Notes under the pieces: model-generated
Databases searched by the model: none
The model's input: the letters and a program-made list of their open reading frames with translations, nothing else
Told to the model about the DNA's origin: nothing
NCBI RefSeq assembly: GCF_988242995.1
Contig: NZ_OZ547043.1
Direction: 5' to 3' (one strand)
Length of the DNA stretch: 64,000 nucleotides
Translations under genes and position numbers: made by a program
In this document: positions 9,276-61,752 of the stretch, piece after piece
Numbering within the stretch: the stretch's first letter is position 1
Layout of the letters: each line of letters opens with the position of its first letter

Positions 9276-10340
9276 ATGGTAACGTCCTGTACTGGACATG
9301 TTTTAGATAATCAGCGCGCCACCACTCGCGGAGATTTCTCCTCCGGTAGCAACTTCGTCACTTTGTATTTTCAACCTCATCCTTTCTTTTCATGTGTTAC
9401 CGACGCCGTAAACGGTGCGCGTAGCCGTTTTTCGGCATTTTATCCAAAAGCAAACTATGGCTTACAAGGAAGCCAACCCTCTGATGTTCGTGCGCATAAT
9501 CGCGCTGCCAACGGCGCGTGTGATGAATACAAACAACTCAAGGTGCTCTCCATGGGAAGACAAAAAGCAGTGATCAAAGCTCGTCGCGAGGCAAAACGTG
9601 TGCTGAGACGGGATTCGCGCAGCCATAAGCAGCGTGAAGAAGAATCGGTCACCTCGCTTGTGCAGATGAGCGGCGTAGAAGCCATTGGTATGGCCCGCGA
9701 CAGTCGCGATACCTCGCCCATCCTCGCGCGAAATGAAGCGCAATTGCACTATCTGAAGGCTATTGAGAGTAAGCAGCTGATATTCGCCACGGGCGAAGCC
9801 GGGTGCGGAAAAACCTGGATCAGCGCAGCAAAAGCGGCAGAGGCCCTGATACATAAGGATGTCGACAGGATTATCGTCACCCGTCCAGTTCTGCAAGCCG
9901 ATGAAGATCTTGGCTTCTTACCTGGAGATATCGCAGAAAAGTTTGCTCCCTATTTTCGTCCGGTCTACGACGTGCTGGTCCGGCGCTTAGGGGCTTCCTT
10001 TATGCAGTACTGCCTGCGACCGGAAATAGGGAAGGTGGAAATTGCGCCGTTCGCCTATATGCGTGGACGTACCTTTGAAAATGCAGTCGTCATTCTTGAC
10101 GAGGCGCAGAATGTGACTGCCGCGCAAATGAAAATGTTTTTAACCCGCCTCGGGGAGAACGTGACGGTTATCGTCAACGGTGATATCACGCAATGCGATT
10201 TGCCTCGCGGCGTGCGCTCCGGATTAAGTGACGCGCTGGAACGTTTCGAAGAAGATGAAATGGTCGGGATCGTCCGATTCGGTAAAGAGGATTGCGTACG
10301 TTCGGCACTTTGCCAACGTACGCTACATGCATACAGTTAA
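9276..10340 (+). CDS. phoH: PhoH, phosphate-starvation-inducible ATP-binding protein
   Basis: 354 aa, Walker A GEAGCGKT; matches recalled PhoH. Confidence 0.95.
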   Translation: MVTSCTGHVLDNQRATTRGDFSSGSNFVTLYFQPHPFFSCVTDAVNGARSRFSAFYPKANYGLQGSQPSDVRAHNRAANGACDEYKQLKVLSMGRQKAVIKARREAKRVLRRDSRSHKQREEESVTSLVQMSGVEAIGMARDSRDTSPILARNEAQLHYLKAIESKQLIFATGEAGCGKTWISAAKAAEALIHKDVDRIIVTRPVLQADEDLGFLPGDIAEKFAPYFRPVYDVLVRRLGASFMQYCLRPEIGKVEIAPFAYMRGRTFENAVVILDEAQNVTAAQMKMFLTRLGENVTVIVNGDITQCDLPRGVRSGLSDALERFEEDEMVGIVRFGKEDCVRSALCQRTLHAYS

Positions 10341-11674: not shown

Positions 11675-12385
11675 GTGCACAGAAAACCCCCAGCTAGGCT
11701 GGGGGTTCCGGAAAGCTTTCAGCTTTGAGCCAGTTATTAAAACCCCTTTTGATTTGTTAAAACACCTTGCGGTCTGGCAACTGCAAGTGTCAAACAAGAA
11801 ATCAAAAGGGGGTCCCAATGGGGGACGAAAAGAGCTTAGCGCACACCCGCTGGAACTGTAAATATCACATAGTTTTTGCGCCGAAATACCGAAGACTGGC
11901 GTTTTACGGAGAGAAGCGTAGGGCGATAGGCAGTATTTTGAGAAAGCTGTGTGAGTGGAAAAGCGTACGGATTCTGGAAGCAGAGTGCTGCGCAGATCAT
12001 ATCCATATGCTTGTGGAAATCCCACCCAAAATGAGCGTATCCGGCTTTATGGGATATCTGAAAGGGAAAAGCAGTCTGATGCTTTACGAGCAGTTTGGGG
12101 ATTTGAAATTCAAATACAGAAACAGGGAGTTCTGGTGCCGAGGGTACTATGTCGATACGGTGGGTAAGAACACGGCGAAGATACAGGACTACATAAAGCA
12201 CCAGCTTGAAGAGGATAAAATGGGAGAGCAGTTATCGATTCCCTATCCGGGCAGCCCGTTTACGGGCCGTAAGTAACGAAGTTGGATGCAAATGTCAGAT
12301 CGTGTGCGCCTGTTAGGGCGCGGCTGGTAACAGAGCCTTACAGGCGCATTTGAAAAACCTCCGGCTATGCCGGAGGATATTTATT
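11675..12385 (+). mobile_element. IS200-like insertion sequence (IS200/IS605 family), about 0.71 kb
   Basis: Single 152-aa HuH transposase; subterminal hairpins CCCCCAGC-TAG-GCTGGGGG (11687-11705) and CCTCCGGC-TAT-GCCGGAGG (12358-12376); no terminal inverted repeats; size as expected for IS200; exact ends approximate. Confidence 0.8.
11818..12276 (+). CDS. tnpA: IS200 transposase TnpA (Y1 HuH)
   Basis: 152 aa MGDEKSLAHTRWNCKYHIVFAPKYRR..HIHML..RGYYVDTVG; HuH motif and catalytic Tyr region; ORF track extends upstream to an in-frame start at 11767. Confidence 0.9.
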   Translation: MGDEKSLAHTRWNCKYHIVFAPKYRRLAFYGEKRRAIGSILRKLCEWKSVRILEAECCADHIHMLVEIPPKMSVSGFMGYLKGKSSLMLYEQFGDLKFKYRNREFWCRGYYVDTVGKNTAKIQDYIKHQLEEDKMGEQLSIPYPGSPFTGRK

Positions 12386-12571: not shown

Positions 12572-12659
12572 TGGCGGTGAGGGGGGGATTCGAACCCCCG
12601 ATACGTTGCCGTATACACACTTTCCAGGCGTGCTCCTTCAGCCACTCGGACACCTCACC
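12572..12659 (-). tRNA. serX: tRNA-Ser (serX type)
   Basis: 88 nt, sense strand GGTGAGGTGTCCGAGTGGCTGAAGGAGCACGCCTGGAAAGTGTGTATACGGCAACGTATCGGGGGTTCGAATCCCCCCCTCACCGCCA; long variable arm typical of tRNA-Ser, encoded CCA. Confidence 0.9.
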
Positions 12660-18204: not shown

Positions 18205-18958
18205 GATGAAACCCCGCTTTTTTTATTGATCGCACACCTGACAGCTGCCTCTAAAATAGAAGCACCAGAAGTACTGACAGATGTTGCACTGCTGTGTGTA
18301 GTAATAAATCAGCCCTAAATGGGTAAAATATAAAACTAATGGATTACATCTGATTTCAATCTAGCCATTACAAATCTTAAATCAAGTGTTAAACATGTAA
18401 CTAAATGTAACTCGTTATATTAAAATGTTAATCTTAAGGTTTTGTTAAGTTTAGAAATGATAGAAAAGTTGTACATTTGGTTTTTATTGCACAATTTTAA
18501 AAAATCATACAAATGGTGCTAACTTACTAATAATGCATATAAAAAATATTTCGGTGTAGTCCTTTCGTCATGTAAAACGTTGTTGTTTTTTCTTCACACC
18601 TCCGTGGACAATTTTTTACTGCAAAAAGACGAGGTTTGTCACGGCTTGTGCGCAAGACATATCGCAGCAATCAGCGACGGGCAAGAAGAATGGCTGTCTG
18701 GTGATTTTTGATTGCGGAAAACGGAGATTTAAAAGAAAACAAAATATTTTTTTGCGTAGATAACAGCGTATTTACGTGGGTTTTAATACTTTGGTATGAA
18801 CAAAAAAAGAAAAATACAACGCGCGGGTGAGTTATTAAAAATATTTCCGCAGACATACTTTCCATCGTAACGCAGCGTTAACAAAATACAGGTTGCGTTA
18901 ACAACCAAGTTGAAATGATTTAATTTCTTAAATGTACGACCAGGTCCAGGGTGACAAC
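18205..18958. promoter_or_regulatory. csgD-csgB divergent intergenic control region
   Basis: 754 bp, strongly AT-rich; contains GTTACATTTAGTTACATGTTTAACAC on the csgD strand (about 18386-18414), consistent with the OmpR/CpxR region of the csgD promoter. Confidence 0.8.
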
Positions 18959-28423: not shown

Positions 28424-28521
28424 GCCTGATGCGCTACGCTTATCAGGCCTACATCGCTCCTGCAACGTGTTGATTTTGCAAGATTTTGTAGGTCGGATAA
28501 GGCGTTCACGCCACATCTGGC
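28424..28521. repeat. Two REP elements (BIME-like) after opgH
   Basis: GCCTGATGCGCTACGCTTATCAGGC and GTAGGTCGGATAAGGCGTTCACGCCACATCTGGC. Confidence 0.6.
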
Positions 28522-37617: not shown

Positions 37618-37668
37618 TAATCTCTATGCTCCGGCTGAAGGGATGTTTTTGCCGGACACAAAGGATAA

Positions 37669-44844: not shown

Positions 44845-45138
44845 TCAGTTACTCTGCAAGTCTTGCTGCGCTTCGTTGATCAGCGCATCGGCAATTTTGC
44901 CGGTGTCCATTTTTAGTTCACCGTTACGAATCGCCAGTTTTAACGCTTCGACACGTTCAAGATTGATATCACTGCTGCCGGGTTGCATCAGTTTTGCTTG
45001 CGCGTCGCTTAACGTCACACTGGTGCTGGTGGAGGCGGTTGTTTTTGCCGCCCGGGTGTTCGTTACGGGCGCGTCAATGGTTTCGCGCGGTTGAACGGTG
45101 CTTACGGGCTTCAGAGGCGAAGTGCGATCAATACTCAT
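44845..45138 (-). CDS. flgM: FlgM anti-sigma-28 factor
   Basis: 97 aa. Confidence 0.95.
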
Positions 45139-45181
45139 GGTTTATTCCTCATTGAGGGCGCTTTTATCATGTGTTGCTTAT

Positions 45182-45208
45182 TTATCGGCAAGGGACGGGT
45201 AATCTTTA
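45182..45208 (-). promoter_or_regulatory. Sigma-28 (FliA) class 3 promoter for flgMN
   Basis: On minus strand TAAAGATT - 11 nt - GCCGATAA (consensus TAAAGTTT-N11-GCCGATAA) between flgA stop and flgM start. Confidence 0.6.
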
Positions 45209-45213
45209 ACAGC

Positions 45214-45873
45214 TTACAGGTTTATAAGAATATTCCCATCTGCATCAACAACGCCGCTGACCACCTGTCCCGATACCATGCGCACCCGCGCATTCTGTGC
45301 GACGGCTGCATTGTTCAGCGCCTGACCTTCTGCGTTGGCGCTAAACCCATCACCACTGGCGATCACGTTGACGCGTTGTCCCGCTTTTACCCGCCATGCC
45401 TGGCGAAACTGGGTTAACTGGATAGGTTGATCGGGTGATAGATCGCGCAGGCTAACGGCATCAACAAGTTGATTGATATCCAGCACCGTACGCGGTGGCA
45501 AGGTGTCCAGCCGTCCGCGTTTCAGTTTGACATTGCCAGCTTCCAGCTTTCCTCCCCGCACAATGGGCATTGCGGCAACCACATAATTTCCTGTGGCCTG
45601 CACATAAACCTGTAAATATCGTTTGTCGTTACCGCAGCGTGCCAACACATTCACATTGCCCCACAGGCGGGAATTATTGCTCATCGAAAGCAATGGCTGC
45701 TCGCACGGCGGTAGTAGATTGGGCGCTGTACGAATAGAAACACGAACCTCATCACTTACCCCCGCGAGCTGGGCGCTAAAAAAGGTGTGCAATTGCGATG
45801 TGAGATTGCTCGCCGCACTTAACGGACTGAACAGTATCGCGATGATCGCCACGCTACGTTTTATTGCCAGCAT
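45214..45873 (-). CDS. flgA: FlgA P-ring assembly chaperone
   Basis: 219 aa. Confidence 0.95.
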   Translation of the reverse strand: MLAIKRSVAIIAILFSPLSAASNLTSQLHTFFSAQLAGVSDEVRVSIRTAPNLLPPCEQPLLSMSNNSRLWGNVNVLARCGNDKRYLQVYVQATGNYVVAAMPIVRGGKLEAGNVKLKRGRLDTLPPRTVLDINQLVDAVSLRDLSPDQPIQLTQFRQAWRVKAGQRVNVIASGDGFSANAEGQALNNAAVAQNARVRMVSGQVVSGVVDADGNILINL

Positions 45874-46027
45874 TTTCGCCCCCTGCCATTTCTACAACGT
45901 GAATTGTACCTGTCCGCAATGACCATCAACGGCATAAATAGCGACCCATTTTGCGTTTATTCCGCCGATAACGCGCGCGTAAAGGCATTTAAGCTGATGG
46001 CAGAATTTTGATACCTGCGGAGGAGAT
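45874..46027. promoter_or_regulatory. Divergent flgA / flgB class 2 (FlhDC-dependent) promoter region
   Basis: Position between divergent flagellar operons; motifs not resolved by eye. Confidence 0.55.
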
Positions 46028-53289: not shown

Positions 53290-53316
53290 TCAAGTCCGGC
53301 GGGTCGCTGCCGATAA
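53290..53316 (+). promoter_or_regulatory. Sigma-28 class 3 promoter for flgKL
   Basis: GCCGATAA -10 element at 53309-53316; -35 is a weaker match (5 of 8 to TAAAGTTT). Confidence 0.5.
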
Positions 53317-59338: not shown

Positions 59339-59699
59339 CGTAACTTACTCATTATTCTTACATTGACGACTAAGCTGCGGGCAAAGTAACGCCTTTCCGG
59401 GTGTGAACCGATGGCCTCGTGTCTAGTCGCGTCGCCAACCTCACGGTTATCGTCAGCTCAAAGAGGCGCAGAGTGTCGGTTGCCCGTTTTTCATGCGGAA
59501 AAACAGCGCAATTATCAAAGAAACAGACTGGGTATTACTCTCCAGAAATATTTCCATCTACCGGTAAGGACTGCAACCCGCAGCCCGCTAACTGCCTGAA
59601 AGATCAATACGTCTTACGCCATTGCTGCGTGGATGATCGGTCGGGCAAAATGGGTTATTCCGTAAAATTTCTTGTTTTAACAAGGATGGACACGGAAAC
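59339..59699 (-). promoter_or_regulatory. rne 5' leader (autoregulatory UTR) and promoter region
   Basis: Long untranslated region upstream of rne ATG; known to mediate RNase E autoregulation; exact transcription start not determined here. Confidence 0.55.
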
Positions 59700-60981: not shown

Positions 60982-61566
60982 CTATCCCATCAGCGGGTTT
61001 TTCCCTTCACGACGTAACATCTGACACAGCGCGATTAGCGGTAAACCAACCAGCGTGTTAGGATCACGCCCCTCTAAACGCTCAAACAGCGTAATGCCAA
61101 ATCCTTCACTCTTAAAGCTACCCGCGCAGTGCAGGGGATGCTCCTTACGCACGTAATTATCAATCTCCGCCTCGCTCAGGTGACGGAAATGGACGTCAAA
61201 AGGCTCCACTTCTGTTTGCAGATGCCCATTCGCCGAATTAAACAACGCCAGTCCAGTATAGAAGGTGACGATATTGCCGCTGGCTTTACGTAATTGCAGA
61301 CGGGCATTTTCTTCCGTTAACGGTTTACCGGTGATTTCGCCATCAAGAACACATACCTGGTCTGAACCAATAATTAAATGATCCGGATAACGTGACGCCA
61401 GAGATTGCGCTTTTTCTTGTGCCAGTCGAAGCACCAACTGTCGCGGTGATTCGTCGCTGCGTGGGGTTTCGTCGACCTCGGGTGCTGCACATTCAAAAGA
61501 GATTTGCAGTTTTTCCAGAAGAGCGCGACGCCAGGGCGAGGTGGAGGCTAAAATAAGTTTAGGCAT
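60982..61566 (-). CDS. yceF: YceF Maf-like nucleotide pyrophosphatase
   Basis: 194 aa from ATG at 61564-61566 ([14 protein letters not shown]). Confidence 0.9.
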
Positions 61567-61569
61567 ATT

Positions 61570-61724
61570 TTTTTCCATCAGATATAGCGTATTGATGATA
61601 GCCATTTTAAACTATGCGCTTCGTTTTGCAGGTTGATGTTCGTTATCAGCACTGAACGAAAATAAAGCAGTAACCCGCAATGTGTGCGAATTATTGGCAA
61701 AAGGCAACCACAGGCTGCCTTTTT
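61570..61724 (+). ncRNA. sraB: Probable SraB small RNA locus upstream of yceD
   Basis: Recalled to lie in the yceF-yceD spacer; plus-strand hairpin GGCAACC..GGCTGCC followed by T5 at about 61703-61724 would be its terminator; 5' end not determined. Confidence 0.3.
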
Positions 61725-61752
61725 CTTTGACTCTATGACGTTACAAAGTTAA

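Follow-up and report, generated by a model that had tools for sequence, protein, structure and literature searches.

FlgM, the anti-sigma-28 factor, is encoded downstream of the class 2 gene flgA, and the locus raises the question of whether the short gap between the two genes carries a promoter of its own for flgM and flgN, and by which sigma factor such a promoter would be read. The stretch of DNA analysed (64,000 nucleotides; hereafter the window) contains in this gap a site that is almost certainly the known FliA (sigma-28) class 3 promoter of E. coli flgMN. Both this promoter with its sigma factor and the double (class 2 and class 3) expression of flgM are long-established knowledge. The motif, its position, the chance statistics, the deep conservation and the absence of a terminator were established in the present analysis; published data on the identical sequence back FliA binding in vivo and in vitro, the loss of flgM mRNA upon mutation of fliA and the overlap of the two operons. 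The discovery value is little; the case serves as a useful positive control, in which a regulatory element was located to the base from the letters alone.

The flgA-flgM gap and its sigma-28 motif

The gene identities (Table 1) were consistent between Pfam, the MG1655 annotation and the RefSeq annotation of E. coli genomes with 99.5% identity. The 1.8 kb surrounding the site showed 99.5% identity to several E. coli genomes (ST2747-type), and this region was matched in 5425 of 5426 complete genomes. The comparison with MG1655 covered 161 bases and revealed one difference, which lies inside flgM, the gap itself being identical.

The open reading frame of flgA, including its stop codon (TAA, 45216-45214), ends at 45214, and the flgM start codon occupies 45138-45136. 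The initial annotation had reported a match to the FliA consensus at 45182-45208, in the 75-bp gap after flgA. Direct reading of the window confirmed all of its coordinates and sequences, and the gap extends from 45139 to 45213. On the minus strand, positions 45208 to 45182 read TAAAGATT-ACCCGTCCCTT-GCCGATAA; the plus-strand letters are TTATCGGC (45182-45189) and AATCTTTA (45201-45208). The sigma-28 consensus TAAAGTTT-N11-GCCGATAA was matched at 15 of 16 positions, i.e. with one mismatch. The -35 element begins 5 nt past the flgA stop codon, and flgM is on the strand of the promoter, with 43 nt between the end of the -10 element and its ATG. Among the Rfam matches across the window, no family overlapped the promoter.

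Table 1. Positions of the promoter elements, genes and other features in the window
Feature	Position	Strand	Remarks
flgA, 219 aa, upstream class 2 gene	45214..45873	-	RefSeq, MG1655 annotation, Pfam PF13144
-35 element TAAAGATT	45201..45208	-	7/8 vs consensus TAAAGTTT
Spacer ACCCGTCCCTT, 11 bp	45190..45200	-	Length fixed, sequence free except last T (45190)
-10 element GCCGATAA	45182..45189	-	8/8 vs consensus
Probable sigma-28 transcription start (A)	45174	-	8 nt after -10 element
Class 3 leader of flgM	45139..45173	-	Shine-Dalgarno GAGG 45150-45147; upstream complementary CCTC 45157-45154
flgM, anti-sigma-28 factor, 97 aa	44845..45138	-	First gene of class 3 unit; Pfam PF04316
flgN, export chaperone for FlgK/FlgL, 138 aa	44424..44840	-	Second gene of class 3 unit; Pfam PF05130
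murJ	ends 44384	+	Local gene order
flgB	from 46028	+	Local gene order
Rfam matches (rne 5' UTR element, SraB, PyrC leader, Ysr251, STnc490, ES056, ES036, tRNA)	59363-59699, 61560-61728, 37618-37667, 10142-10335, 11685-11808, 18260-18351, 28445-28487, 12575-12659		Far from the site

Chance expectation and conservation

Consensus matches do arise randomly in general, and the window has 11 copies of the octamer GCCGATAA by itself, so that a chance match without promoter function was weighed as an explanation of the site. With at most one mismatch, however, the site was the sole match on the two strands of the 64-kb window (expected, 0.00), and none of 100 dinucleotide-preserving shuffles yielded such a match. 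The motif was also kept with fixed spacing in all 103 orthologous loci among the matches listed, and binding was published both by FliA ChIP-seq (PMC4183435) and by gSELEX (PMC5493296). The chance reading is already refuted by the conservation and the binding data, and we assign it a vanishingly small probability. When up to three mismatches were allowed, the window contained four matches against 0.54 expected, one of which is the published flgKL promoter (53290-53316). As regards the GCCGATAA octamer, 2.1 copies were expected in the window and none of 100 shuffles reached the observed number; three of the 11 copies lie in flg regulatory regions, and codon-level bias may be a cause of the remaining ones.

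Orthologous loci were picked with a degenerate DNA pattern for the FlgM peptide ELKMD-x-GKIA, the promoter playing no part in the selection. At least 120 loci were retrieved, of which 103 with enough upstream sequence were used, and 99 unique segments served for the column statistics. The matches listed included Escherichia, Salmonella, Citrobacter, Enterobacter, Kluyvera, Kosakonia, Buttiauxella, Cedecea, Pantoea, Erwinia, Mixta, Serratia and Edwardsiella. Upstream of flgM, the arrangement TAAAG-N3-N11-GCCGAT was present in 103/103 of these loci with 1-4 mismatches to the consensus, and the spacer was 11 bp long in every one of them. Among the 99 unique segments of the matches listed, TAAAG was conserved at 100% (2.0 bits per base), GCCGAT at 97-100% and the A after GCCGAT at 96%, values that are inflated by anchoring on the best match, and the spacer columns held 0.07-0.36 bits only. 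Two positions outside the search pattern were also conserved among the matches listed, namely the T directly 5' of the -10 element (45190; 98%) and the A located 8 nt after it (45174; 93%). Shuffling of the intergenic region locus by locus gave p <= 0.013 for each of the listed loci and 0 for most.

The flgA stop codon was used as a motif-independent anchor. In 85 of 102 listed loci from several families, the -35 element started 5 or 6 nt past this codon, and the codon itself was TAA in 98 of the 102. Within E. coli, the 111-bp promoter region was at least 99% identical in 5300 of 5425 genomes, the corresponding number for the surrounding 1.8 kb being only 553. Judged from these sequence comparisons, purifying selection on the promoter is very strong throughout Enterobacterales, and the promoter provides a conservation picture of such a promoter: invariant hexamers, fixed spacing and free spacer sequence.

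Four loci (L040, L044, L084 and L111) were considered as motif-free exceptions and rejected as such, the motif being located 5-6 nt after the flgA stop in all four; three of them have long leader insertions, and the flgM of L044 appears disrupted. In L111 (Serratia sp. Ag1), 332 nt lie between the -10 element and the flgM start codon, compared with about 90 nt in other Serratia, and the extra leader DNA resembles an inserted repeat element with long inverted repeats. In L044 (Enterobacter sp. EA-1), the promoter is intact and a normal FlgM N-terminus is out of frame with the C-terminal part, which indicates either a pseudogene or an assembly error. Three further loci did not fit the names of their sources: an Enterobacteriaceae-type flgA-flgM locus under 'Chryseobacterium sp. 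18061' (L081), a Pantoea-type locus under 'Enterobacter ludwigii' (L057) and a Serratia-type locus under 'uncultured Klebsiella' (L041). Contamination or mislabelling is the likely cause.

FliA dependence, read-through and the transcription start

For flgMN of MG1655, the site listed from FliA ChIP-seq is the identical 28-mer TAAAGATTACCCGTCCCTTGCCGATAAA (Fitzgerald, Bonocora & Wade 2014, PMC4183435), and its FAT score of 48 places it among the strongest sites in the portion of the table covered. In gSELEX, the reconstituted sigma-28 (RpoF) holoenzyme alone selected the flgA/flgM spacer with an intensity of 15.0 (Shimada et al., PMC5493296). In microarrays, flgM mRNA was 6.9-fold lower upon deletion of fliA and 2.0-fold higher upon FliA overexpression (Zhao et al., PMC1935009). 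In the ChIP-seq study, flgM expression was restored by fliA overexpression in an flhD deletion, and the data supported the overlapping operons flgAMN (class 2, FlhDC) and flgMN (class 3) (PMC4183435). When FlhDC was supplied, a lacZ reporter fused to the fragment upstream of flgM became active in a 2026 study (PMC12781870), and reporter-based modelling treated pflgM as a class 3 promoter with a class 2 signal near background (PMC4295839). Since these data were obtained on the identical sequence, the experiment on FliA dependence that the initial annotation had asked for has in essence been done.

Transcription arriving from flgA was considered next to initiation at the site. A scan of the minus strand between 44300 and 46100 detected no terminator-like site, and the predicted RNA folds of the flgA-flgM junction (z = +0.66) and of the leader (z = +0.95) were not above those of shuffled controls. 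A FlhD/FlhC ChIP-seq peak was located at flgAMN/flgB and the flgAMN value fell from 319 to 3 in an flhD deletion (PMC4183435); activation of flgAP1 by FlhD4C2 in vitro has been described (PMC12781870). Because no terminator was found between flgA and flgM, class 2 read-through combined with class 3 initiation is the supported reading. The expression of flgM by both routes, as first proposed from the letters, agrees with the ChIP-seq data and overlapping operons of PMC4183435 as well as with the terminator scan.

The sigma-28 transcription start was provisionally placed at the A at 45174, with a leader of 36 nt, because the conservation of this A agrees with the leader of a published fusion: the flgM::gfp construct '+1 to 105', which ends after 23 codons, implies a 5' UTR of 36 nt (Romilly et al., PMC7549644). 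One loose end is that the published 5' end falls within the -35 element. The sole flgM start listed is MG1655 1129417 (version 2 coordinates, minus strand; Kim et al. 2012, PMC3415461; Cho et al. 2014, PMC3923258; one laboratory), which corresponds to window position 45204, the G of TAAAG; the flgM start codon follows 66 nt and the probable sigma-28 start 30 nt downstream of it. Its counts were 14 and 21 in the two datasets (PMC3415461, PMC3923258), and the later paper assigned it to sigma-70, with both sigma-70 and sigma-28 in the ChIP column (PMC3923258).

The recurrence of this start in two datasets from the same laboratory (PMC3415461, PMC3923258), its assignment and the sigma-70 ChIP signal in the region (PMC3923258) would fit an internal flgMN promoter that is, or includes, a sigma-70 promoter within the 3'-terminal part of flgA with its start at 45204. 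The hexamers available to such a promoter are weak, however (TAAGCT, 3/6; ATGGGA, 3/6), and lack conservation outside the flgA stop codon, and a sigma-70 scan was empty on the minus strand at the site. The -10-like hexamer TAAGCT (45216-45211) overlaps the flgA stop codon, which is its only conserved part, the last T being present in 31% of the matches listed. In addition, the counts are low, the end at 45204 could stem from processing of flgAMN mRNA, and a sigma-70 promoter would leave both FliA binding and FliA dependence unexplained. We therefore consider this explanation improbable; 45204 may be at most a minor additional start or a processing end of flgAMN, and does not replace the sigma-28 promoter. 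A different explanation accepts the FliA site as true and regards it as physiologically minor, most flgM mRNA being supplied by the class 2 promoter of flgA, with the class 3 promoter mattering only at high FliA activity, e.g. in flagellar repair or swarming. Consistent with this, RNA-seq of motile MG1655 gave flgMN values of 451 in the wild type and 318 in the fliA deletion, a small difference that was not flagged significant, and the authors held that FliA adds little to dual-regulated transcripts under the conditions used, although the promoter can be very active upon fliA overexpression (PMC4183435). The 6.9-fold decrease in the microarrays (PMC1935009) and the very strong purifying selection on the promoter across Enterobacterales speak against a minor role, which we regard as rather unlikely. 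The difference between the two measurements, -6.9-fold and 451 to 318, indicates that the class 3 share depends on strain and condition.

With the sigma-28 promoter as the preferred reading, the FliA holoenzyme would bind TAAAGATT (-35) and GCCGATAA (-10), 11 bp apart and directly past the flgA stop, and transcription would begin at the A at 45174, about 8 nt further downstream. The product would be an mRNA with a 36-nt leader for FlgM and FlgN. As no terminator separates flgA from flgM, flgM would also be read through from the FlhDC-activated class 2 flgA promoter, and FlgM would thus be present before completion of the hook-basal body and would keep FliA inactive. After export of FlgM has released FliA, flgM would be re-expressed under FliA, which would constitute negative feedback on FliA. 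The initial annotation had called the dual expression the basis of the FlgM/FliA checkpoint. The dual class 2/class 3 expression held, but by established knowledge the checkpoint does not rest on the dual promoter as such. The checkpoint consists in the export of FlgM via the completed hook-basal body; what the class 3 promoter contributes is the negative feedback loop from FliA to flgM and the late expression of FlgN.

The flgM leader and related promoters

E. coli and E. albertii share a spacing of 43 nt between the -10 element and the flgM start codon. Among the matches listed, this spacing was 58-64 nt in most Enterobacteriaceae (Salmonella, Citrobacter, Enterobacter, Kluyvera, Kosakonia), 67-73 nt in Erwinia/Pantoea and 88-97 nt in Serratia, and short leaders also occurred in Pluralibacter gergoviae (40 nt) and two Buttiauxella (44-45 nt). 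The leader of Escherichia, including E. albertii, is short by about 17-22 nt among these matches, and the alignment gap spans about 22 columns.

Within the E. coli leader, the minus-strand sequence CCTC-AAT-GAGG (45147-45157) places a 4-bp complement of the flgM Shine-Dalgarno sequence 3 nt upstream of the latter. The CCTC-N3-GAGG arrangement was present in 52 of the 103 listed loci. In the 48 Enterobacteriaceae-type leaders listed, the predicted pairing of the Shine-Dalgarno core was 0.89 compared with 0.59 for shuffled upstream sequence; the listed Erwiniaceae-type leaders (0.60 vs 0.62) and the remaining ones showed no excess. A conserved Shine-Dalgarno-sequestering hairpin was rejected: as the excess was confined to Enterobacteriaceae, the apparent covariation from CCTC/GAGG to CCTG/CAGG lacks support as a structure of the whole family. 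An ATG located 4 nt past the probable transcription start opens a frame of 11 codons (ATGATAAAA...; 45135-45170, minus strand), whose TGA stop overlaps the flgM ATG. This frame is probably not a conserved small open reading frame, a leader ATG being present in 55 of the 103 listed loci with variable length and stop and with no consistent peptide.

The 75-bp gap might hold an extra regulatory layer, in which class 2 read-through or the termination of flgA translation would interfere with class 3 initiation, or in which the two mRNAs would differ in translatability. We raise this because the -35 element follows the flgA stop so closely in 85 of the 102 listed loci, because a sigma-70-assigned 5' end lies inside the E. 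coli -35 element, because Escherichia has lost about 17-22 nt of leader and because the CCTC-N3-GAGG of Enterobacteriaceae could pair with the Shine-Dalgarno sequence; we nevertheless hold such a layer to be very unlikely. Transcript-specific translational control, which is reported for flgM in Salmonella, would fit it.

Two promoters were reportedly described for flgM of Salmonella enterica by Gillen and Hughes in 1993, and the dual class 2/class 3 logic of that promoter is common to E. coli. In S. enterica subsp. arizonae, the listed Salmonella locus L104 has its promoter at the same position, 5 nt past the flgA stop, with TAAAGATT as the -35 element and the same 11-bp spacing. Its -10 element is GCCGATGA, with one mismatch more than that of E. 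coli, and its -10-to-ATG distance is 59 nt, whereas that of E. coli is 43 nt. The E. coli K-12 flgMN promoter, as given in PMC4183435, has the same motif string, genes and gap as the window, which represents another strain with no difference in the promoter.

The flgKL class 3 promoter (TCAAGTCCGGCGGGTCGCTGCCGATAA, plus strand) is located within the window in front of flgK, behind the class 2 operon flgB-J. Its site TCAAGTCCGGCGGGTCGCTGCCGATAAT is a FliA ChIP-seq site with a FAT score of 47 (PMC4183435). The flgKL and flgM promoters are both internal FliA promoters after a class 2 operon, with a perfect -10 element and an 11-bp spacer, but the -35 element of flgKL (TCAAGTCC, three mismatches) is much weaker than that of flgM, which has one mismatch.

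An exact copy of GCCGATAA was also observed upstream of flgB, in the flgA-flgB intergenic region (45964-45971, plus strand), where the -35 element (CCCATTTT) is poor. This site is probably flgBP2, which is sigma-28-dependent and MarA-activated according to PMC12781870. The covered portion of the ChIP-seq table contains no FliA peak in the flgA-flgB intergenic region, and neither flgA nor flgB was rescued by FliA overexpression in the flhD deletion, as stated in the legend of Fig. S6 (PMC4183435). Given a sigma-28 flgAP2, the 'class 2' transcription of flgA may not be purely sigma-70. According to PMC12781870, flgAP2 and flgBP2 are sigma-28-dependent and belong to the same gene cluster as the flgM promoter; they overlap the FlhDC site and are repressed by FlhDC, and flgBP2 needs MarA. 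In contrast to both, the flgM promoter is activator-independent and strong.
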